Of a stretch of 64,000 bases of DNA, positions 3,301 through 13,411 are shown piece by piece. The DNA is taken from assembly GCA_963743305.1 (NCBI GenBank), contig CAVUPH010000014.1, forward strand, positions 192,001 through 256,000, given 5' to 3'. The position numbers were made by a program, and so were the translations under genes. This DNA comes from an uncultured delta proteobacterium (GTDB taxonomy: Bacteria; Desulfobacterota; RBG-13-43-22). Each line of letters starts with the position of its first letter. The stretch's first letter is position 1. A model generated the notes under the pieces. That model searched no databases. It was not told the origin of the DNA and was given only the letters and a program-made list of their open reading frames with translations.

Positions 3301-3329
3301 TTGACAAATAAAGGGATTCCAAACAAAAT
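3301..3329 (+). promoter_or_regulatory. Putative sigma70 promoter of tetR
   Basis: TTGACA-N17-CAAAAT. Confidence 0.45.
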
Positions 3330-3354: not shown

Positions 3355-4098
3355 ATGGAGGCCTCCCGTCTCTGCCTTAATCGAATGGTCCGGTTCAGTA
3401 TGACGACATTAAAAACCACTGCTAAGGAACCGCCGGCACCCGAATTCCTTAAAGAAATTCCGGCCAGTCCGACATTCCTGAACCTTCCGGAAGCCAAGCG
3501 GGATCGAATTATCTTGGCGGCCACCCGGGAATTTTCAGAAAAGGGATACCAGGGAGCTTCCATCAACACCCTGGTGGACGACCTGGGAATCTCCAAGGGA
3601 TCGATATTCCAATATTTTTCTAACAAGAAAGGCCTTTTTCTCTTTATCTTCCAGGCGGCGGTGGCTCAGGTCCGCAAAACGCTGGTAACGGTAAAAGAAG
3701 AAACCGAGGAATTGGAGGTCTTTGAACGAATCAGGAGTTCACTCCTGGCCGGAGTCGATTTCGTTCGTCGGCATCCCCATATCTATAGAATATATTTGAA
3801 ATTACTGTTCGATCGGGACGCCCCTTTCCGCAATGAGCTGCTTCAGGCCGTTCGACTATTTTCCTCCGAATATCTGGGTTCTCTGGTGCGAAAGGGGATG
3901 GACCGGGGGGAGATCCGCCGGGATATCGCCCCGGAACAGGCGGTCTTTATCCTGGACGCGGTGCTGGACCGATACCTGCAAGCCTATATGGTTCCTTATC
4001 TGGACCACAGAGGCAATATCTACCGGGTTGATCAAAAAAAGGTGGAAGAGTGGGCGGTCGGACTGGTTACTATTTTACGAAAAGGCTTGCAAGGATAG
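3355..4098 (+). CDS. TetR/AcrR family transcriptional regulator (true start may be ATG 3400)
   Basis: N-terminal HTH: KRDRIILAATREFSEKGYQGASINTLVDDLGISKGSIFQYFSNKKGLF. Confidence 0.92.
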   Translation: MEASRLCLNRMVRFSMTTLKTTAKEPPAPEFLKEIPASPTFLNLPEAKRDRIILAATREFSEKGYQGASINTLVDDLGISKGSIFQYFSNKKGLFLFIFQAAVAQVRKTLVTVKEETEELEVFERIRSSLLAGVDFVRRHPHIYRIYLKLLFDRDAPFRNELLQAVRLFSSEYLGSLVRKGMDRGEIRRDIAPEQAVFILDAVLDRYLQAYMVPYLDHRGNIYRVDQKKVEEWAVGLVTILRKGLQG

Positions 4099-4136
4099 TT
4101 TTTTTTCTTTATAAAATGACCAGGTGGTCATTTTAT
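4087..4136 (+). promoter_or_regulatory. sigma70 promoter of the mqn operon overlapped by a perfect palindromic operator
   Basis: TTGCAA(4087)-N17-TATAAA(4110); ATAAAATGACC-aggt-GGTCATTTTAT at 4111-4136 has 11-bp perfect arms. Confidence 0.7.
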
Positions 4137-4151
4137 TGGAGGTGGTTGAAA

Positions 4152-5240
4152 GTGCTTGAAGTCAGAGATGCGCGGCTAATGCCCATCCGGGAAAAGGTTT
4201 TATCGGGGGGGCGCTTGGAAAAGGAAGATGGTTTGGCCCTCTATCAAAGCCCTGACCTGCTGGGTGTGGGGGCTTTGGCCAACCGGATCCGAGAGAACCG
4301 AAACGGTAACCGGGCCTATTACATCGTCAACCAGCATATTAACTATTCGAATATCTGTCAGAACCGCTGCCGTTTTTGCGCCTTCGGTCGGGACCCGGAG
4401 GATCCGCTGGCTTATCAAATGAGCCTGGAGGATATCGAGGCGAAAGTCCGGGAACGGCTGTCCGACCCGATCAGCGAAATTCACATCGTCGGGGGTATCC
4501 ATCCCACCCTTCCCTTTGCCTACTACCTGGAAATGCTTCAACGGATTAAAAGAATCCGCCCGTCGGTTCACCTGCAGGCCTTCACGGCCGTGGAAATCGC
4601 CCATTTGGCTCACCTGGCCCAAAAATCCATTGAAGACACCTTGTCGGTCTTGATGGAAGCCGGGCTGGGATCCTTGCCGGGGGGCGGGGCGGAGGTCTTC
4701 AGCTCCCGTATCCGGGAAAACCTCTGCGCCAAAAAACTCCCTTCCCGGGATTGGATTTCCGTTTGCCAGACGGCCCACCGTCTAGGGCTCCATACCAATG
4801 CCACCCTGCTCTACGGCCATCTGGAGACCCTGGAAGAGCGGGTGGACCACTTGCTGGCCCTGCGGAAGGCCCAGGATGAGACCGGAGGCTTTCTGACCTT
4901 TATCCCGCTCGCTTTCCATCCCAAGAATACCGAGTTGGCGGAAATGGCCGGTACGACCGGCGTGGATGATCTGAAAAATATCGCCGTGGCTCGCCTGATG
5001 CTGGACAACTTTCCCCACATCAAGTCCTTCTGGATCATGATCGGTCCCAAACTGGCCCAGATTTCCCTGTCCTTTGGAGCCGACGATATAGATGGAACGG
5101 TCATTGAAGAACGGATTACCCATATGGCCGGGGCGGAAACCGCCCAAGCCATGACCCGGGAGGAAATTCTTCACCTGATCCGGGAAGCCGGACGTGAACC
5201 GGTGGAGCGGGATACCTTGTATAATACCGTAGTCCACTAA
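4152..5240 (+). CDS. mqnE: Aminofutalosine synthase (radical SAM)
   Basis: CQNRCRFC; LDNFPHIKSFWIMIG; FGADDIDGTVIEERITHMAGA. Start placed at GTG 4152 after the GGAGGT RBS. Confidence 0.88.
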   Translation: MLEVRDARLMPIREKVLSGGRLEKEDGLALYQSPDLLGVGALANRIRENRNGNRAYYIVNQHINYSNICQNRCRFCAFGRDPEDPLAYQMSLEDIEAKVRERLSDPISEIHIVGGIHPTLPFAYYLEMLQRIKRIRPSVHLQAFTAVEIAHLAHLAQKSIEDTLSVLMEAGLGSLPGGGAEVFSSRIRENLCAKKLPSRDWISVCQTAHRLGLHTNATLLYGHLETLEERVDHLLALRKAQDETGGFLTFIPLAFHPKNTELAEMAGTTGVDDLKNIAVARLMLDNFPHIKSFWIMIGPKLAQISLSFGADDIDGTVIEERITHMAGAETAQAMTREEILHLIREAGREPVERDTLYNTVVH

Positions 5241-5262: not shown

Positions 5263-6282
5263 ATGCGCCTCAATTCCCAACAAGCCCTGGACTGGTACCA
5301 ATCGGATCTCCTGACACTCGGGCAAGCCGCCCAGGAGGTTCGCTGGAAGCTCCACCCCGAACCAGTGGTCACTTATGTGGTGGACCGGAACATTAATTAC
5401 ACCAATGTCTGCCTTTCCGGCTGCCGTTTTTGCGCCTTTTATCGGCAGGCGGATTCCCCGGAAGCCTATGTGCTGGACCGGGAGGTCTTGGGCAAAAAAA
5501 TTGAAGAAACATTGGCCCTGGGAGGCACCCAGATACTGCTTCAGGGCGGGATGCACCCTGATCTGCCCTTTTCATTTTATGAGGACTTGCTTCAATGGAT
5601 CAAGGGCCGTTACCCGATCCACATCCACGGATTTTCGCCTCCCGAAATCAATCACCTGGCCCGGATAGCGGGTATGCCCCTGGAAACGGTTTTAATCCGG
5701 CTTAGGGATTCCGGACTTGGCTCCATTCCGGGCGGGGGGGCTGAAATCCTGGTGGACCGGGTCAGAGAACGGGTTTCTCCCCGAAAAGGGACGAGCGCCG
5801 AGTGGCTTCAGGTCATGGAAACAGCCCACCGCATTGGGTTGCGAACTACCGCCACCATGATGTTCGGCCATCTGGAGACCGTCGCAGACCGGATTGAGCA
5901 CCTCTTGGCCGTACGAGAACTGCAGGATCGTACCGGCGGCTTCACCGCTTTCATCCCCTGGACCTTCCAGCCGGGGAATACCGATCTGCGGCGGATTCCG
6001 GCCGGAGGGACGGAGTACTTGCGTATGCTGGCCCTGTCCCGGTTGGTCCTCGACAACATTCCCAACATCCAGGCTTCCTGGGTTACCCAGGGGCCCAAGG
6101 TCGGGCAAATCGCCCTTCTGTTCGGAGCCAACGACCTGGGCAGCACGATGATCGAAGAAAATGTGGTGGCCGCCGCCGGGGTGGCTTACCGCTTATCTAT
6201 TGAAGAGCTGGCCCGCCTGATCACGGCCGCCCGTTTTATCCCCCAACAGCGGGACACCTTTTACCAAAAGGTGGCGACATGA
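5263..6282 (+). CDS. mqnC: Cyclic dehypoxanthinyl futalosine synthase (radical SAM)
   Basis: DRNINYTNVCLSGCRFCAFYR; QASWVTQG; GANDLGSTMIEENVVAAAG. Confidence 0.9.
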   Translation: MRLNSQQALDWYQSDLLTLGQAAQEVRWKLHPEPVVTYVVDRNINYTNVCLSGCRFCAFYRQADSPEAYVLDREVLGKKIEETLALGGTQILLQGGMHPDLPFSFYEDLLQWIKGRYPIHIHGFSPPEINHLARIAGMPLETVLIRLRDSGLGSIPGGGAEILVDRVRERVSPRKGTSAEWLQVMETAHRIGLRTTATMMFGHLETVADRIEHLLAVRELQDRTGGFTAFIPWTFQPGNTDLRRIPAGGTEYLRMLALSRLVLDNIPNIQASWVTQGPKVGQIALLFGANDLGSTMIEENVVAAAGVAYRLSIEELARLITAARFIPQQRDTFYQKVAT

Positions 6283-7145
6283 CCCCCCGGGTGGCGGTTA
6301 TCGCCAGGGTTGGCGCTCATCGGGCTTTTCTGGAGCAAGGCGCCCGAGAGTTAAGTGTTCAGCCCTTGAACACTCCATTCGGGTTAAGCGTTCCGATCCA
6401 TTTTTTGGAGTCGGAGGGCATCCCCTTTGTGGTCTTATCCCGCCATGGGGAGGACCGATATGCTACCGCGGCCCCCTTCGTAAACGACCTGGCCAACATC
6501 TGGGCACTGAAAGAAGCCGGCATCGAAAAAATCCTGTCCTGGTCGGCTCCCGGATCCCTGAATCCGGCAATGGCGCCGGGTTCCCTGGTGGTGGTGGATG
6601 ATCTGCTGGATGAAACCCGTTCCGGACCCCGGTCTTTTTTCGAGGGGAAGGGTATCGGGGTAATCCGGCAGGAGGCCGTGTTCTGTCCGGAAATTCGGGC
6701 GTTGATGATTGAAAAACTGGCGGGGGTCCCGTTCCTTCTTCATTCCCAAGGAGTCTATGTCTCCGTGGAAGGTCCCCGCCTGGAAACCAAGGCGGAGATC
6801 CGCAAGTATCGCCTGCTCGGAGGAGACCTGATCGGCATGAATCTGGCGCCGGAGGCCTTCCTGGCCAAGGAACTGGAAATGTGTTACGGGGCCTTGTGCT
6901 ATCCCGTCAATTTTGCCGAAGGGGTCAAGGTACGACCTTACGTGCGGGGGATCCTATTTGAGGGATTGGCCTTTCCCGAGGAAATGGCGCGGGTCAAAGA
7001 AGTGGAAAAGGCCTTCCCGGAACTGATCCTGCCTTTATTGGGCCCCTTGACGGAAACCCCCCGCGCCTGCCCCTGCCCCGTCGCCATGGAGCGCTACAAA
7101 ATCCGGGGAGACATCGGAGAAGACTTTCACACATGGATCAAATAA
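6279..7145 (+). CDS. MTAP/PNP-fold nucleoside phosphorylase/hydrolase with atypical active site (candidate futalosine-cleaving enzyme)
   Basis: TPFG, SRHG, ANIWALK, GSL, EGPRLETKAE motifs; ATGA overlap with mqnC. Confidence 0.8.
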   Translation: MTPRVAVIARVGAHRAFLEQGARELSVQPLNTPFGLSVPIHFLESEGIPFVVLSRHGEDRYATAAPFVNDLANIWALKEAGIEKILSWSAPGSLNPAMAPGSLVVVDDLLDETRSGPRSFFEGKGIGVIRQEAVFCPEIRALMIEKLAGVPFLLHSQGVYVSVEGPRLETKAEIRKYRLLGGDLIGMNLAPEAFLAKELEMCYGALCYPVNFAEGVKVRPYVRGILFEGLAFPEEMARVKEVEKAFPELILPLLGPLTETPRACPCPVAMERYKIRGDIGEDFHTWIK

Positions 7146-8335
7146 CGCTCTACCAGGCCCGCTGGATCGTCCCGGTTAGCCTTCCGCCCATTGAACGAGG
7201 GGTCGTCGCGGTCCGAAAAGGCGAGATAACCGCGCTAGGGGGGGAAAAGGAAATTTCCCTGACCTTTCCCGGGGAACGGCGGGACCTGGGCCAAGGAGCG
7301 ATACTTCCCGGATTGATCAATGCGCATACCCATGTGGAACTGTCCCGGCTTAAAGGTCTCATTCCGGAAGGTTTGGGTTTCGTACCCTGGGTGAGGCACC
7401 TGCTGTCTCTCAAAGAAAAAACCAAGGCGGAGAATCCGGACGAGGCCGTGGGACCGGCCTGGGATGAAATCAGCCGTACCGGCACCTGTGCCGCCGGGGA
7501 CTGGATCAGCCTGGAGTGCCTGATCCCGCGAGGGTCTTCATCGAAAGTATTCCGCCGGTTATTCTTTGAAGTGATCGGATTTGACTCCTCGGGGTTGACT
7601 TTGCCGGAGGTCCTCGACGAGGGACCGGCGACGGACCTATTCGGAAGTTTAACCCTGGGGGCCCACGCCCCCCATAGCACCTCGGCCGCTTTGCTCCAGG
7701 CCGCCAAAACCTGGACCCGGCGAAGGGGTCTGCCGCTGGCCATTCATGTGGCTGAAACCAAAGAGGAAACGGAATTCCTGCTCACCGGGAAGGGCGTCTG
7801 GAAGGACTTTTTAATTGAGCGGGGGAAGTGGGTGGAGGACTGGAAGGCCCCCAAGACCACGCCGGTAAAATACCTGGACCGCTTGGGGCTGCTGGATGAA
7901 AATACCCTCGCGGTTCACCTGACCCAGGCGGATCCGAGCGACCTATCCATTCTGCGGGATCGAAGCGTGCGGGTGGTGGTCTGCCCGCGAAGCAACCGGT
8001 TTATTGTCGGGGCACTTCCGGATATTCCGTTCATGGTGCGGACCGGCCTGAAACCGGCCCTAGGCACCGACAGCTTGGCCAGTAATGCCGACCTGGGCCT
8101 CTGGGGAGAGATGGAGACCGTACAACAGGCCTTCCCGGAGATCGACCCTTGGGAGATTATCCGGATGGCCACTATCCACGGAGCCTCGGCCCTGGATCTG
8201 TCCGGGGAACTGGGAGACCTGTCCCCGGGGAAAAAGGCCCGGATGTTTTTTCTTCCTTTGAACGAAGTCACTGAAGAAGAATTACCCTCCGCCATTATCC
8301 ATTCCGGCGGACGGCGCCTGGAATGGCTGCGGTGA
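7133..8335 (+). CDS. Amidohydrolase, probable 6-aminodeoxyfutalosine deaminase
   Basis: PGLINAHTH, HAPHST, IHVAET..E, GTDSLASN metal-binding motifs; located in the mqn operon. Confidence 0.75.
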   Translation: MDQITLYQARWIVPVSLPPIERGVVAVRKGEITALGGEKEISLTFPGERRDLGQGAILPGLINAHTHVELSRLKGLIPEGLGFVPWVRHLLSLKEKTKAENPDEAVGPAWDEISRTGTCAAGDWISLECLIPRGSSSKVFRRLFFEVIGFDSSGLTLPEVLDEGPATDLFGSLTLGAHAPHSTSAALLQAAKTWTRRRGLPLAIHVAETKEETEFLLTGKGVWKDFLIERGKWVEDWKAPKTTPVKYLDRLGLLDENTLAVHLTQADPSDLSILRDRSVRVVVCPRSNRFIVGALPDIPFMVRTGLKPALGTDSLASNADLGLWGEMETVQQAFPEIDPWEIIRMATIHGASALDLSGELGDLSPGKKARMFFLPLNEVTEEELPSAIIHSGGRRLEWLR

Positions 8336-8404: not shown

Positions 8405-9853
8405 ATGGCTCATGCTGATTTACAGTCGTTTATATCCAGGCTGGAAAAGGAGGGGGAACTGGTTCGCATCAGGGAACCGCTGGATCCTTATCTGGAAATC
8501 TGCGAGGTAACCGACCGGGTCTGCAAGGCGGGCGGCCCCGCACTCCTTTTCGAAGCGGTGAAGGGGAAAACCGTTCCGGTGCTGACCAATGCCTTCGGTT
8601 CACTAAAACGGATGTGTTTGGCTCTGGAAGTGGAGCGCCTGGATCAAATCGGAGAGGAAATTCACCAGTTGTTGGCGCTCAAACCTCCCCAAGGTTTCAT
8701 GGATAAACTCCGGCTACTCCCTCGGCTCAAACGGCTCCGGGACCTGCTGCCGCGCACGGTGGACCGGGGACCCTGCCAGGAGGTCGTTTTTCAGGAAAAC
8801 CCGGACCTGTCCGCTTTCCCGGTTCTGACCACCTGGCCCCTCGATGGTGGTCCATTCATTACCCTGCCCCTGGTCATCACTCGGGATCCGCAGACCGGGA
8901 AACGCAACGTGGGCATGTACCGCCTCCAGGTATTTGACGCCAGGACCCTGGGGGTCCACTGGCAACTCCATAAAGTGGGGGCCCAGCATTTTCGCGCCGC
9001 CGAAGCCTCGGGGAAGGACCTGCCCGTGGCCGTGGCCCTGGGACCGGACCCGGCCCTGACCTACGCGGCCACCGCCCCGCTGCCGGAAGAGCTGGATGAA
9101 TTCATGTTCGCCGGGTTCTTGCGCCGGGAGCCCGTCAAACTGGTCAAATGTCGCACCATCGATCTGGAGGTGCCGGCCAATGCCCAGATCGTTATTGAAG
9201 GGATCGTCCCGGCCGGGAAGCGGCGACGGGAAGGGCCTTTCGGGGATCACACGGGCTATTATTCCCTGGCGGATGACTATCCACTGATGGAGGTGACCTG
9301 CATCACGCAGCGAAAGAACCCCATTTATCCGGCCACGGTGGTGGGGGTGCCGCCCATGGAAGACGCCTTCCTGGGCAAAGCCACGGAGCGTATCTTCTTG
9401 CCCCTGCTTCGACAGACCCTGCCGGAAATCCGGGATATGCATCTGCCGGCCGCCGGCGCTTTTCATAACTTTGCCCTGGTGTCCATCGAGAAACGCTACC
9501 CCGGCCACGCCAAAAAGGTGATGATGGCCCTCTGGGGGCTGGGACAGATGATGTTTTCCAAATTCATCGTGGTCTTTGACGGGGAGGTGGACGTCCAGGA
9601 CCTGAACCAGGTCCTCTGGCAATGGGGGGCCAATGTGGACCCCCGGCGAGACTCGGTACTGGTAGAAGGCCCGGTGGATGCGCTGGATCACGCCGCACCG
9701 CTGCCGGCTCTGGGCAGCAAAATCGGGTTTGATGCTACAACCAAATGGCCGGAGGAAGGATTCGGCCGGCCCTGGCCGGATAAGATCCGCATGGATCCTC
9801 AGGTGAGCGAACGGATCGACCAACTCTGGTCTAAGCTGGGGCTGCCGCGATGA
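8405..9853 (+). CDS. ubiD: UbiD-family decarboxylase (menaquinone pathway, MqnL-type)
   Basis: RNVGMYRLQ, EGPFGDHTGYY, PPMED, GPVDALDHA, KIGFDAT. Confidence 0.9.
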   Translation: MAHADLQSFISRLEKEGELVRIREPLDPYLEICEVTDRVCKAGGPALLFEAVKGKTVPVLTNAFGSLKRMCLALEVERLDQIGEEIHQLLALKPPQGFMDKLRLLPRLKRLRDLLPRTVDRGPCQEVVFQENPDLSAFPVLTTWPLDGGPFITLPLVITRDPQTGKRNVGMYRLQVFDARTLGVHWQLHKVGAQHFRAAEASGKDLPVAVALGPDPALTYAATAPLPEELDEFMFAGFLRREPVKLVKCRTIDLEVPANAQIVIEGIVPAGKRRREGPFGDHTGYYSLADDYPLMEVTCITQRKNPIYPATVVGVPPMEDAFLGKATERIFLPLLRQTLPEIRDMHLPAAGAFHNFALVSIEKRYPGHAKKVMMALWGLGQMMFSKFIVVFDGEVDVQDLNQVLWQWGANVDPRRDSVLVEGPVDALDHAAPLPALGSKIGFDATTKWPEEGFGRPWPDKIRMDPQVSERIDQLWSKLGLPR

Positions 9854-10710
9854 AGCAGCTTGCGACAATTTTTGAACTAGTCAAATTTGAACATACGATT
9901 TTTGCCCTGCCCTTTGCCTATCTGGGGGCCTGGCTGGCGGCTTCCGGTCCGCCCAGCCTGAAGGTGGGGCTGCTGATCCTGGGGGCCATGGTCGGCGCCC
10001 GGACCGCGGCCATGGCCTTCAACCGGATCGCCGATGCCAAAATCGACGCACTCAACCCGCGAACGGCCGGCCGACCGATTCCCTCTGGGCGCCTATCCCC
10101 GGCCGCAGCCTGGTTCGTATGTCTGACCGCGACGGCCGCTTTTTTTCTGGCCAGTTGGACACTAAACCCCCTGGCCTTGGCCCTTTCGCCCTTGGCTCTG
10201 GGGGTGATCCTGGCCTATTCCTACACCAAACGGTTTACGGCGACCTCTCACCTGATACTGGGGCTGGCCTTAGCGATAGCTCCCATCGGGGGTTGGGTGG
10301 CGGTGCGGAATGAACTGGAGCTGCTCCCCTTGGTCTTGGGGGCCGGGGTCTTGTTTTGGGTGGCCGGCTTCGATGTCCTCTATGCCTGCCAGGACGAATC
10401 CTTTGATCGCCGGCACGGGCTGTATTCCCTTCCGGCCCGCAGGGGAGCCGCGGCGGCCTTTCGGGTGGCCGGTTTTTTTCATTTTCTGGCTTTTCTGTTT
10501 TTTGCCCTCACGGGCCGACTGGCCAACCTGGGGGGATTCTATTTTATCGGGTTAACCCTGGTCTTTATCTTTCTCTTTCTGGAACACCTGATTATTTCCC
10601 CCCGAGATCTTTCCAAGCTGCAGACTGCTTTTTTCACCTTGAACGGAGCGGTCAGTCTGGTTCTTTTTTTGGCCACCTGGCTGGAATTTTGGAAGGGACG
10701 TTCGTACTAA
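9850..10710 (+). CDS. ubiA: UbiA-family polyprenyltransferase (MqnP-type)
   Basis: VKFEHTIFALPF, NRIADAKIDALNPRT.GR.IP.G, YSYTKRF, FDVLYACQD. Confidence 0.9.
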   Translation: MKQLATIFELVKFEHTIFALPFAYLGAWLAASGPPSLKVGLLILGAMVGARTAAMAFNRIADAKIDALNPRTAGRPIPSGRLSPAAAWFVCLTATAAFFLASWTLNPLALALSPLALGVILAYSYTKRFTATSHLILGLALAIAPIGGWVAVRNELELLPLVLGAGVLFWVAGFDVLYACQDESFDRRHGLYSLPARRGAAAAFRVAGFFHFLAFLFFALTGRLANLGGFYFIGLTLVFIFLFLEHLIISPRDLSKLQTAFFTLNGAVSLVLFLATWLEFWKGRSY

Positions 10711-10767
10711 AACCTCTTGCCCCGAGGGGTACCCGCGGAGCCTGAAGAAGATAAAGGAGGAGGTCCG

Positions 10768-11775
10768 ATGAATAAAAAAATTTCTCTCTTGTTAGGGGCC
10801 GCTTTCTGGCTGGTGAGTTTCTGCCCCCAGCCGGTTACGGCCCTGACCACGGTCAAAGTGGGGATGCTCAAAGTCTCCAGCAGCGCTCCTCTTTTTGTGG
10901 GGCTGGAAAAAGGATATTTTCAGGAGGAGGGGATCAGGATCGAGCCGATCTGGTTCAAGTCGGCCCAGCCCATCGCCGTGGCCCTGGCCAGCGGGGATAT
11001 TGATGTCGGGGCCACCGGTCTGACCGCCGGACTTTACAACGCCGCCGCCCAAGGAACCAAGCTGGCGGTCGTGGCGGACAAGGGTCGGGAATGGCCCGGA
11101 TATAAATTGACGGCCCTGGTGGTGGATTCGAACCAGACCAAGGCCGGAATCAAAGATCTCGCCCAACTCAAGGGGAAGCGGATTGGCATCACCCAGCTAG
11201 GCTCCACCTTTCACTATATGCTGGGCAACCTGCTGGAGAAAAGAGGCCTGTCCCTCAAAGACGTCAAAGTCGTTCCCCTGAACAGCCTCAATACGATGCG
11301 GGACGCCGTTTTCAGCCACCAGATCGAGGCCGCCTTCATGGTCCAGCCCCATGTCACCCCGGCGGAAAAAGCGGACCGGGCCGACGTGCTGCTCTGGGTG
11401 GGTGATCACCTGCCTTACCAGTTGGGAGGGATCTTTTATGGAGAGAAACTGATCAAGAACCGCTCCCTGGCCGTCTCCTTTCTCAAGGGCTATATTCGCA
11501 GTTGCCGGTATTATCATGAAAACGGATTGAGCAAGAAAGCGGGGGTGCCGACTCCGGAACTCCTGACCCTGATCGCTCGGTATACGGAAGAGAAACCCGA
11601 GGACGTGGCCGCCGGGCTGCCCTATATCGATCCCAACGGAGAGCTGCTCAGTGGTGACATTCAAAAACAGATTGACTGGTACGCGGCCCATGGCCTGGTG
11701 ATCCGAAGGATGCCTTCCTCCGAAATCATGGACCCTTCGCTTTACCGTGAAGCGCTGAATCAGCTTAAAAAATAA
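10768..11775 (+). CDS. ABC transporter substrate-binding protein, NitT/TauT/SsuA (NMT1-like) family
   Basis: Signal peptide MNKKISLLLG...VTA; EKGYFQEEG, ALASGDID, LKGKRIG; AAGGAGG RBS before ATG 10768. Confidence 0.88.
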   Translation: MNKKISLLLGAAFWLVSFCPQPVTALTTVKVGMLKVSSSAPLFVGLEKGYFQEEGIRIEPIWFKSAQPIAVALASGDIDVGATGLTAGLYNAAAQGTKLAVVADKGREWPGYKLTALVVDSNQTKAGIKDLAQLKGKRIGITQLGSTFHYMLGNLLEKRGLSLKDVKVVPLNSLNTMRDAVFSHQIEAAFMVQPHVTPAEKADRADVLLWVGDHLPYQLGGIFYGEKLIKNRSLAVSFLKGYIRSCRYYHENGLSKKAGVPTPELLTLIARYTEEKPEDVAAGLPYIDPNGELLSGDIQKQIDWYAAHGLVIRRMPSSEIMDPSLYREALNQLKK

Positions 11776-12551
11776 TGCCGGTCTTGATCGAACAGCTTAC
11801 CAAAACCTATCTGGACCGGAAGGGGCGGACCCTGCCGGCGCTGGAAGAAGTGGATTTCACCGTCCGGGAGGGGGAATTCCTGACCCTCTTGGGCCCCAGC
11901 GGCAGCGGAAAAACAACACTGCTCAATATCATCGCCGGGTTGCTATCCCCCACTTCCGGCCGGGTGGTCTTCGAGAGAGCGAGTCTCAACGGCCGGCCGC
12001 TGACGGCGGTAGTTTTCCAGGAAGGCGCCCTCTTCCCCTGGCGGACCGTTGCAAAAAACATTCAATTCGGACTGGAAGAAAAGGGCCTGGGAAAAGCACA
12101 GCGCCGATCCCTGGCCGCTGAATTTATCCAATTGACGGGCCTGGCCGGCTTTGAGGATCGTTATCCCCACCAGCTCTCCGGAGGATTAAAACAGCGGGTG
12201 GCCTTGGCTCGGGCCCTGGCCGTGAATCCCTATCTCCTGCTGATGGATGAACCCTTATCGGCCCTGGATGCCCAGACCCGGCTGCTGATGCAGCGGGAAA
12301 TTTCGCAAATTTGGGAAAAGGCCCGGAACAGTGTCTTATACGTCACCCACAATATTCGGGAGGCCGTTTTCCTCAGCGATCGGGTGGCCGTCCTCTCACG
12401 GAGACCGGGACGGATCGTAGACCTGGTCTCCATCGACCTGCCCCGTCCCCGCAGTGAGGATCTAACCCGTGAGCAGCCCTTCCAGCGATACGTGGATCGC
12501 TTATGGTCCCGGATCAAGGACCAAGCCCGCGAGGCCATTGAGGAGGGATGA
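11775..12551 (+). CDS. ABC transporter ATP-binding protein (NitT/TauT family)
   Basis: GPSGSGKT, YPHQLSGG, LLMDEP, VTHNIREAV. Confidence 0.93.
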   Translation: MPVLIEQLTKTYLDRKGRTLPALEEVDFTVREGEFLTLLGPSGSGKTTLLNIIAGLLSPTSGRVVFERASLNGRPLTAVVFQEGALFPWRTVAKNIQFGLEEKGLGKAQRRSLAAEFIQLTGLAGFEDRYPHQLSGGLKQRVALARALAVNPYLLLMDEPLSALDAQTRLLMQREISQIWEKARNSVLYVTHNIREAVFLSDRVAVLSRRPGRIVDLVSIDLPRPRSEDLTREQPFQRYVDRLWSRIKDQAREAIEEG

Positions 12552-13411
12552 TGGCAGAAGAAAAGACCGCCTCTTTCTCAATCCGCCATCGGACGCCCCA
12601 GTCGTCCTATGCGGCGGCCCGAACCGGGACGGTTCGGGACAAGACCGCTTTTATCGATGACCGGCCCCAGCCTTATTTGAGCTGGATCGCTTTTGCGGTC
12701 CTGCTGGGCCTCTGGGAAGCGGCCGGCCGTCTCTCCCTGGTCTCCCCCCTCTTTTTGCCGGCTCCCAGTGATATTCTCATGGAAGCCTGGGGACTGCTGA
12801 TCTCCGGTCAGCTTTTCCGGCACCTGGGGATCAGCTTGTTCCGAATTGGAAGTGGTTTTACGCTAGCCGCCGGACTGGGCGTTCTGTCCGGGATACTGCT
12901 GGGTTCTTCGCGCCTGGCAGAGGCGCTGGGGAATCCGATCCTGGCCGCCCTCTTTCCCATCCCTAAAATCGCCATCCTTCCCTTGCTGATTCTCTGGTTG
13001 GGAATCGGGGAAGCCTCGAAGATTGCGGTAATCGGCCTGGGGGTCTTTTTCCCACTGGCCATCAACGTCTACACGGGGGTTAAGAACGTGGATCCCCTAT
13101 TGATCCGGGTGGCCCTGAGCCTCGGTTCCAGTCGTCTGGGTCTGATCAGAAAGGTGGTCTGGCCCGCCATTCTGCCCATGATCTTTGCCGGTCTGAAGCT
13201 GGGCCTGGGGATCTCGCTCCTATTGGTAGTGGCCGCCGAGATGATCGCCGCCGACGCCGGGATCGGGTATCTCATCCTGACCGCCGCCGATTTGATGCAA
13301 ACCAAGAAACTTATGGTGGGGATCGGGATGCTGTCCGGGCTCGGGATATCGTTTAACTGGCTGCTGGGGAAATTGGAACGGTTGCTGATCCCCTGGAAGG
13401 AGGGTCTTTGA
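12548..13411 (+). CDS. ABC transporter permease (NitT/TauT family)
   Basis: LFLPAPS, PIPKIAILPLLILWLGIGE, VAAEMIA..GIG. Confidence 0.92.
   Translation: MMAEEKTASFSIRHRTPQSSYAAARTGTVRDKTAFIDDRPQPYLSWIAFAVLLGLWEAAGRLSLVSPLFLPAPSDILMEAWGLLISGQLFRHLGISLFRIGSGFTLAAGLGVLSGILLGSSRLAEALGNPILAALFPIPKIAILPLLILWLGIGEASKIAVIGLGVFFPLAINVYTGVKNVDPLLIRVALSLGSSRLGLIRKVVWPAILPMIFAGLKLGLGISLLLVVAAEMIAADAGIGYLILTAADLMQTKKLMVGIGMLSGLGISFNWLLGKLERLLIPWKEGL

Follow-up and report, generated by a model that had tools for sequence, protein, structure and literature searches.

An MTAP-family protein encoded between mqnC and a deaminase gene is a probable replacement for MqnB in the futalosine pathway

Introduction

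The futalosine pathway is the sole route to menaquinone (vitamin K2) in many anaerobes and is an antibiotic target, humans being without it. An operon for this pathway is present in a 64,000-nucleotide stretch of DNA from an uncultured delta proteobacterium (GTDB lineage Bacteria; Desulfobacterota; RBG-13-43-22), i.e. positions 192,001 to 256,000 of the forward strand of contig CAVUPH010000014.1 in NCBI GenBank assembly GCA_963743305.1. This stretch is referred to as the window and all coordinates are those of the window unless a locus is named. Within the operon, a gene for an MTAP-family protein (P0001) stands between mqnC and the gene for an amidohydrolase (P0002), and no mqnB or MTAN gene is seen, raising the question of which enzyme cleaves the nucleoside ahead of MqnC. 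The original prediction, made from the window sequence, held that P0002 makes futalosine and that P0001 removes hypoxanthine in place of MqnB, possibly by hydrolysis. This proposal was examined using profile searches, phylogenies, structure prediction and genome comparisons. P0001 is probably a futalosine-cleaving enzyme of the MTAP family that was recruited to the futalosine pathway, where it would replace MqnB (or MTAN).

Results

P0001 is a divergent member of the MTAP family

The operon is tightly packed on the forward strand in the order TetR, mqnE, mqnC, MTAP-like gene, amidohydrolase gene, mqnL and mqnP. The P0001 gene (6279..7145, +; 288 aa) follows mqnC (5263..6282, +), which encodes the radical S-adenosylmethionine (SAM) cyclic dehypoxanthinyl futalosine synthase (TIGR03699, 503.7 bits; cut-off, 428.1), and precedes the P0002 gene (7133..8335, +; 400 aa). 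The mqnC stop and the P0001 start share the sequence ATGA. The ATG of P0002 lies 13 nt ahead of the P0001 stop, i.e. inside P0001, so that of the two genes said to be overlap-coupled to mqnC only the P0001 gene overlaps it, whereas P0002 overlaps P0001.

Membership of P0001 in the PF01048 superfamily was clear (103.1 bits against a gathering score of 25.1) and human MTAP matched residues 29-210 at 9.4e-32. The protein scored below the cut-offs of the equivalog models for S-methyl-5'-thioadenosine (MTA) phosphorylase (TIGR01694; 168 versus 274.85 bits) and S-methyl-5'-thioinosine (MTI) phosphorylase (NF006599; 132.9 versus 223 bits), and the MqnB model (TIGR03664) was not among its NCBIfam matches at E<=0.001. 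A structure model built on 26 relatives (predicted local distance difference test score, 92.9; predicted template-modelling score, 0.92) was compared with solved structures. Foldseek matched it to human MTAP with an E-value of 3.8e-26 and template-modelling (TM) scores of 0.73-0.83, and comparison with the Pseudomonas aeruginosa MTI phosphorylase 3OZB gave TM scores of 0.74/0.89. The modelled fold is of the MTAP type.

The active-site motifs of P0001 are I8-A-R-V-G12, S54-R-H-G57, E164-GPRLETKAE173, I185-G-M-N188 and V210-N-F-A-E-G215; the altered motifs ARVG, GMN and VNFA and the retained RHG and EGPR.ET.AE were all present as originally read. Alignment to a human-type MTAP row gave the replacements T18->V, G17->R, T93->S, F177->L, S178->E, T197->N, D220->N and D222->A (human MTAP numbering, used throughout for MTAP positions), with R60 and H61 kept. 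Asn211 and Ala213 of P0001 occupy the positions of Asp220 and Asp222, which we take to bind adenine in human MTAP. At positions 18, 60, 61, 93 and 197, the presumed phosphate ligands of the human enzyme (Thr18, Arg60, His61, Thr93 and Thr197), P0001 has V, R, H, S and N.

A clade of MTAP-like proteins shares an altered base pocket

P0001 has many uncharacterised relatives that are annotated only as MTAP-family purine nucleoside phosphorylases (PNPs). When species-representative genomes were scanned, 80 loci came up, distributed over Desulfobacterota-like metagenome-assembled genomes, Acidobacteriota, Armatimonadota, anammox and other Planctomycetota, Nitrospirota, Aquificota, Spirochaetes and Bacillota. 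A monophyletic group of 84 rows (Shimodaira-Hasegawa-like approximate likelihood ratio test, 97) within a 106-row tree held nearly all of the mqn-linked members, and canonical MTAP and MTI phosphorylase rows fell outside. This mqn-linked MTAP-like group containing P0001 is hereafter the clade. Its members share a conserved C-terminal tail (CxC...MxRYRxRGxIGxDWHxWI) and have an insert of ~35 residues. A sister group of four rows from Bacillota and Spirochaetales is encoded beside MtnA or transporter genes, and no MqnC was found in their genomes (L077, L079/L081).

Residues were counted in 76 core clade rows. Both positions that contact adenine in MTAP have changed almost without exception, D220 to Asn in 75/76 rows and D222 to Ala in 76/76, and residue 223 is Glu in 75/76. 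The surrounding pocket is equally uniform, with Tyr for H65 in 75/76, Leu for F177 in 74/76 and Glu for S178 in 75/76. The base pocket therefore appears to be of the 6-oxopurine type throughout the clade, which bears out the original reading of the Asn that replaces the base-binding Asp.

Among the presumed phosphate ligands, R60 is Arg in 76/76 rows and H61 is His in 75/76. Position 18 is Ser in 65 rows, Val in four, Thr in one and Arg in one (Ser/Thr in 66/76), position 93 is Ser in 62 and Thr in 11 (Ser/Thr in 73/76), and position 197 is Thr in 71, Asn in three and Ser in two (Thr/Ser in 73/76). With a consensus of S, R, H, S and T at the five positions, the phosphate site seems to be intact, and the clade overall looks like a phosphorylase and not a hydrolase. 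The remodelled phosphate site (ARVG, GMN) that had been taken as a hint of hydrolysis proved to be confined to the branch of the window.

A Phycisphaerae sub-branch (P0143, P0151, P0154, P0157, P0174 and locus L082) has RYG, DSS, RFK or PGG for RHG and THx for GMT. The base-pocket motif is kept in this sub-branch, and L082 also keeps the adjoining deaminase gene.

Genomes with the clade lack MqnB and MqnD

Profiles for MqnB (TIGR03664) and MTAN (TIGR01704) were used to search the whole genome assembly of the window's organism (4.9 Mb in 43 contigs), and neither gave a match at E<=0.001. As the assembly is an estimated 90.1% complete, the absence of both enzymes is probable but not proven. The original statement that the window has no mqnB or MTAN gene can be extended to the assembly, this search having covered the case of a canonical mqnB elsewhere in the genome. 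Four PF01048 genes were found, encoding a PunA-type PNP (adjoining an MtaD-like deaminase gene, away from the operon), an MTI-phosphorylase-like paralogue (L002) that passes NF006599 (229.8 versus 223 bits) and also has Asn at the D220 position, a 319-aa AMP-nucleosidase-like protein (L003) and P0001. MenD and MenB scored below their cut-offs in this genome and exceeded them in none of five genomes checked, indicating that the Men pathway is not present.

The distribution of the clade was then assessed in 301 genomes drawn evenly from the window's phylum. Scores against a clade profile were bimodal (positives, >=349 bits; all others, <=217 bits) and identified 27 clade-positive genomes, one of which was included on the basis of two neighbouring fragments in the same frame. 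MqnC was present in 156 genomes of the sample, MqnB (E<=1e-25) in 107 and PF02621, the MqnA/MqnD family, in 155. All but one of the clade-positive genomes had MqnC (26/27), the 27th having a split mqnC. MqnB was found in 0/27 of them as compared to 106/130 of the other MqnC-positive genomes, such that MqnB and the clade were mutually exclusive in this sample. The proposed check on this subfamily, i.e. co-occurrence with mqnC and anticorrelation with mqnB, was thereby borne out. MTAN did not exceed its cut-off in any clade-positive genome (0/27) or in any of the genomes having neither MqnB nor the clade (0/24).

A second difference concerned PF02621. A single copy was present in 22 clade-positive genomes, none in five and two in none, whereas 100/107 MqnB-type genomes had two copies and 120/130 of the other MqnC-positive genomes had two or more MqnA/MqnD (VitK2_biosynth) genes. 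The single copy that was tested (L014) matched structures of the chorismate dehydratase MqnA (7AHR/2NXO; 4.4e-25); MqnD structures gave no match at E<=0.01. The exchange thus appears to be one of MqnB plus MqnD for one MTAP-like gene. A further set of 43 genomes was reached through the loci of many phyla. MqnB exceeded its cut-off in 0/43 and MTAN in 6/43, and MqnC/MqnE-type genes were present in 38/43. PF02621 was searched in 42 of these genomes, i.e. all except the window's own, and matched (E<=0.001) in 35/42, with two copies each in G016 and G040 and one in the other 33.

In the window's genome, PF02621 gave no match at all, and a genome search with the MqnA protein of a related locus found nothing. 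This lineage has mqnE, mqnC, mqnL and mqnP, yet by this profile it is without both MqnA (chorismate dehydratase) and MqnD. PF02621 is also missing from three relatives in the same family and from one other family (5/27 clade-positive genomes without a copy). Two candidates for a hidden MqnA were rejected: a binding protein encoded at 10717-11775 carries a signal peptide, matches SsuA/NMT1 and is encoded just ahead of ATPase and permease genes, and a weak PF02621 match in relative G002 (23 bits) is an NMT1-type binding protein.

Relation to MqnZ and to replacement of MqnD alone

A PF01048 protein in such operons has been proposed before. Ravcheev and Thiele (2016; PMC4746308) described a PF01048 protein from Negativicutes, Pelotomaculum, Syntrophomonas and others without mqnD, where its gene clusters with mqnC/mqnE or mqnEAC. 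They called it MqnZ and proposed that it takes the place of MqnD, while noting that the sequence did not support such a reaction. P0001 resembles MqnZ in being a PF01048 protein whose gene is clustered with mqnC and mqnE while mqnD is absent from the genome (PF02621 count, 0). The MqnZ prediction differs in that it covered proteins of Negativicutes and Clostridia and assigned them the MqnD step. Searches of the available literature found no biochemical study of a futalosine phosphorylase or of MqnZ.

A second, divergent MTAP-like group ('clade 2') was detected in mqnE-mqnA-mqnC-X operons, where X is the MTAP-like gene (L121:3268-4119 (-), L124:1826-2647 (-) and L125:4626-5459 (+)). Its proteins are ~25% identical to P0001 and share N-x-A-E-G, but have 'MHGW' for 'RHG' (i.e. 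Met for Arg60) and no C-terminal tail. The taxa given for its close homologues are Thermosyntropha, Desulfofundulus, Desulfohalotomaculum and Syntrophomonadaceae. Judged by these taxon names, clade 2 is probably the published MqnZ (example locus tag, MHY_27640).

If the MqnZ idea is applied to P0001, this protein would replace MqnD only, converting cyclic dehypoxanthinyl futalosine to 1,4-dihydroxy-6-naphthoate, and another enzyme would cleave the nucleoside. The PF02621 counts above (0/27 clade-positive versus 100/107 MqnB-type genomes with two genes) and the MqnA-like character of the L014 copy fit such a role, as do the published proposal for the Firmicutes mqnE-A-C operons and the counts in Table 1 of Zhi et al. 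(PMC3914697), where MqnD is outnumbered by MqnC both in Firmicutes (16 versus 25) and in Aquificae (7 versus 9). However, the same genomes have neither MqnB nor MTAN for nucleoside cleavage, and a retro-aldol enzyme would have no need of a complete PNP fold that retains residues for base, ribose and (clade-wide) phosphate. The sole other candidate nucleosidase in the window's genome, the AMP-nucleosidase-like L003, adjoins a recN-like gene and was found by the same query in 2/5 other clade-positive genomes and not in 3/5; it is unlikely to be the true MqnB substitute. Replacement of MqnD alone is therefore considered quite unlikely.

The clade gene adjoins mqn and deaminase genes across phyla and is fused to mqnC

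Gene neighbourhoods were examined for 71 loci with a clade member; many contigs were short and the counts are lower bounds. A P0002-type amidohydrolase gene was the commonest neighbour, adjoining the clade gene in 43/71 loci at a median gap of 44 bp. Either mqnE or mqnC was present in 30/71, and mqnA, mqnP and mqnL in 13 each. The mqn-linked loci came from phyla that include Armatimonadota, anammox Planctomycetota, Nitrospirota, Acidobacteriota and Desulfobacterota, with an order in Armatimonadota of mqnL-mqnM-mqnP-mqnE-mqnA-mqnC-X-surE. In one Desulfobacterota family, the two genes are joined: a 706-aa MqnC~MTAP-like fusion (L122:3035-5155 (-)), in which MqnC spans residues 32-366 and the MTAP-like part residues 423-705, is encoded in an operon reading mqnE-[mqnC~X]-deaminase-mqnA-mqnL. 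Fusion frames of 689 and 696 aa occur in two relatives from the same genus-level group. A predicted complex of separate MqnC and MTAP-like proteins (score, 0.00; mark, 0.32) was evidence neither way.

The Armatimonadota loci have a further constant neighbour, in that surE (phosphatase family) lies directly downstream of the MTAP-like gene in eight of them at a median gap of 38 bp (e.g. L014:8937-9704 and L019:8173-8781), which would be noteworthy if the product of the MTAP-like enzyme is a sugar 1-phosphate. As stand-ins for MqnD, surE and a HAD hydrolase gene situated near the MTAP-like gene in five anammox loci are weak leads, each being limited to one phylum. In a 94%-identical relative of the window (L005:6984-8004), mqnC is split into two overlapping open reading frames (ORFs) by a frameshift or an assembly error.

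P0002 is a probable aminofutalosine deaminase of the ordinary type

The best solved relatives of P0002 were 2IMR (DR_0824; 2.7e-28 over residues 23-350) and 3V7P/4M51 (7e-17), followed by 7LKJ (8.6e-16), the structure title of which is 'Aminofutalosine deaminase'. We take 2IMR and 3V7P to be aminofutalosine deaminases as well. P0002 scored below the cut-off of NF006269 (125.2 versus 320 bits). Its predicted metal and catalytic residues (H65, H67, H205, E208, H262 and D313) are invariant in 13 P0002-type neighbours of clade genes. A deaminase profile made from these neighbours and applied at E<=1e-30, a threshold at which MtaD-like paralogues are also caught, matched in 26/27 clade-positive and 29/30 MqnB-type genomes, in the latter often adjoining mqnC. 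Since the P0002 type is equally a part of MqnB-type clusters, P0002 is, on this sequence evidence, the ordinary aminofutalosine deaminase of the pathway and lies outside the displacement. The idea that the amidohydrolase makes futalosine accords with its resemblance to aminofutalosine deaminases, but its inclusion as a part of the replacement does not stand.

These data also bear on whether P0001 might act on aminofutalosine itself, in the manner of the Helicobacter and Campylobacter MTAN, with the deaminase as a side activity. MTAP-family enzymes normally take 6-aminopurine nucleosides, and some loci, e.g. in Armatimonadota, are without an adjoining deaminase gene. Against this stand the loss of the adenine-binding Asp pair in nearly all core members, the rank of the deaminase-type gene as commonest neighbour and the profile matches in 26/27 clade-positive genomes, MtaD-like paralogues included. 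Direct cleavage of aminofutalosine is accordingly judged very unlikely.

A salvage role does not account for the phyletic pattern

MTI phosphorylase (NF006599; 3OZB; also a promiscuous archaeal MTI phosphorylase) is the nearest known system in terms of structure, sharing the MTAP fold (target-normalized TM score of 0.89 to 3OZB), the Asn for the base-binding Asp and a place after a deaminase. The clade is separate in the tree and differs in its ~35-residue insert, C-terminal tail, H65->Y and F177->L replacements, Glu after N-x-A and mqn context. By analogy, P0001 and the deaminase could clear 5'-deoxyadenosine, which MqnC and other radical SAM enzymes generate as a by-product, or else MTA, in the inosine form, with no direct biosynthetic role. 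The base-pocket residues are the same as in MTI-phosphorylase-type proteins, the sister group adjoins MtnA without mqn genes, and a review speculates on an overlap between MTI phosphorylase and futalosine steps (PMC6302742). An MtnA-type isomerase (PF01008) is present in 27/27 clade-positive genomes, but also in 30/30 MqnB-type genomes; being found in 57/57 genomes of both types, it was discarded as a discriminator for a phosphorylated route. Salvage leaves the exclusion with MqnB and MqnD unexplained, and other loci of the genome already encode an MTI-phosphorylase-like enzyme, a PNP and an MtaD-like deaminase. Furthermore, the adjoining deaminase is of the aminofutalosine type found equally in MqnB-type clusters, and the MqnC fusion and the position between mqnC and the deaminase gene, which holds across phyla, also speak against this role. 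A salvage function is thus regarded as unlikely.

In one clade-carrying family (G231, G287, G338, G139, G170 and G260), the open frames that hold the MtnA-type (IF-2B) matches are 609-916 aa long, which suggests an isomerase fused to another domain.

Other features of the operon

The operon is headed by a gene for a TetR-family regulator (3355..4098, +; PF00440, 49 bits), and a TetR gene has the same position in L005, L006 and L127. It is followed by mqnE, for aminofutalosine synthase (4050..5240, +; TIGR03700, 504.1 bits; cut-off, 434.55). The longest mqnE ORF has a GTG start and a 49-nt overlap with the TetR gene, while in L005 these genes do not overlap. The true mqnE start is probably downstream of 4050 because the match to the MqnE model begins at residue 46. 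Downstream of P0002 are mqnL, for a UbiD-family menaquinone biosynthesis decarboxylase (8405..9853, +; TIGR03701, 654.8 bits; cut-off, 495.9), and mqnP, for a UbiA-family prenyltransferase (9850..10710, +; PF01040, 186 bits; TIGR01475, 299.6 bits; cut-off, 180.8). The mqnP gene scored 250-290 bits against the MqnP exception models, below their cut-offs. An ABC transporter is encoded next (10717..13411, +), with profile matches for an SsuA/NMT1-like binding protein with a signal peptide, an ATPase and a permease. Its membership of the pathway is doubtful; the adjoining transporter is kept only in the near-identical relative L005 and is absent from L006. A promoter-like site was noted at 3301-3329 with counts near chance, promoter and terminator scans of the window were at chance level, and an Rfam scan of the window gave no match.

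Discussion

The evidence favours P0001 as the enzyme for the MqnB step. In the proposed sequence, MqnE would make aminofutalosine, the adjoining P0002 would deaminate it to futalosine, a hypoxanthine nucleoside, P0001 would split the N-ribosidic bond with release of hypoxanthine, and the ribosyl product would pass to MqnC. From the fold, residues, synteny, fusion and phyletic pattern we infer the substrate, the use of phosphate and the order of these steps. The assignment to the MqnB step rests on the MTAP-type fold, the base pocket, the adjoining deaminase that would act beforehand, the MqnC fusion and the exclusion with MqnB and MTAN. Phosphorolysis to dehypoxanthinyl-futalosine 1-phosphate is more likely than hydrolysis for the clade, as all phosphate ligands are kept in its consensus. 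The chemistry is less certain for the window's branch, where two phosphate-binding Thr residues are lost and an adjoining Arg is gained. The step originally proposed is hence supported by the exclusion, the mqn operons across phyla and the fusion, whereas the suggestion of hydrolysis is not favoured by the clade consensus. The original reading overlooked the missing MqnD, the missing MqnA of this lineage and the prior MqnZ proposal.

As compared to MqnB, which acts at the same proposed step (i.e. hypoxanthine removal from futalosine before MqnC) in the Thermus and Streptomyces type, P0001 belongs to the MTAP/PNP branch of PF01048 and not to the MTAN/MqnB branch. It probably uses phosphate, unlike the MqnB hydrolase, and genomes of the P0001 type are also without MqnD. 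A precedent for such recruitment is the MTAN (Pfs) of Helicobacter and Campylobacter, also a salvage-type nucleoside-cleaving enzyme that serves the futalosine pathway in the place of MqnB, but this enzyme hydrolyses the adenine form and comes from the other PF01048 branch.

Several observations weigh against P0001 as a futalosine-cleaving phosphorylase, the first being that substrate and chemistry are read from sequence. The sister group shares the base-pocket residues Y65, L177, E178, N220, A222 and E223 without mqn context and the in-clade member L073 is found in a genome without MqnC or PF02621; these residues would thus mark 6-oxopurine 5'-substituted nucleosides generally and not futalosine specifically. 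Among 118 close representatives of P0001 that were counted as the window's branch, the Thr18 hydroxyl is lost in at least 113/118, with Arg-Val/Ile at G17-T18, and T93 is Ser in 41, Val in 37 and Cys in 32, and T197 is Thr in 77 and Asn in 41. The Phycisphaerae sub-branch and clade 2 have lost Arg60 or His61, which disfavours a uniform phosphorolytic mechanism. The 27 clade-positive genomes belong to only seven families, so that few independent events underlie the anticorrelation and Fisher p-values overstate it, and the genome lists for the cross-tabulation were transcribed by hand. A tree of MqnC (78 rows; a five-row group on a length-10 branch, probably a frame-picking artefact, was ignored) interleaves clade-positive and MqnB-type genomes, with no sign of MqnC adaptation to a phosphorylated substrate. 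One cluster, L127:2813-5533, reads TetR-mqnE-mqnC-[123-aa PD-(D/E)XK gene]-deaminase and has no MTAP-like gene; the L127 genome has one PF02621 gene and no MqnB. Finally, how one protein could stand in for two lost enzymes, MqnB and MqnD, is unexplained.

As the same genomes are also without MqnD, P0001, or a route opened by P0001, must cover the MqnD step. P0001-type enzymes may be bifunctional, housekeeping isomerases and aldolases may process a 1-phosphate intermediate (MtnA being present in all genomes tested), or an unlinked further enzyme may act. One specific scheme, which is possible but held as doubtful, is a phosphorolytic futalosine branch. Futalosine would react with phosphate, MqnC would cyclize the ribose-1-phosphate derivative, and the C3 unit would leave as dihydroxyacetone phosphate (DHAP), either through an MtnA-type isomerization and a retro-aldol cleavage like those of the DHAP shunt or by a reaction of the MTAP-like enzyme itself. 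MqnB and MqnD would both be dispensable in this scheme, and a separate enzyme would replace MqnA in the lineage of the window.

The pathway is annotated as 'incomplete' in anammox bacteria, Armatimonadota, Nitrospirota, several Desulfobacterota families and many Firmicutes, with MqnB and MqnD missing, and the MTAP-like clade is the obvious candidate for this gap. The clade most likely points to an uncharacterised variant of the futalosine pathway. If this is true, quinone-pathway calls in genome surveys would be corrected; and if the enzyme is phosphorolytic, the variant would bring in a new intermediate and connect the pathway to the chemistry of the DHAP shunt.

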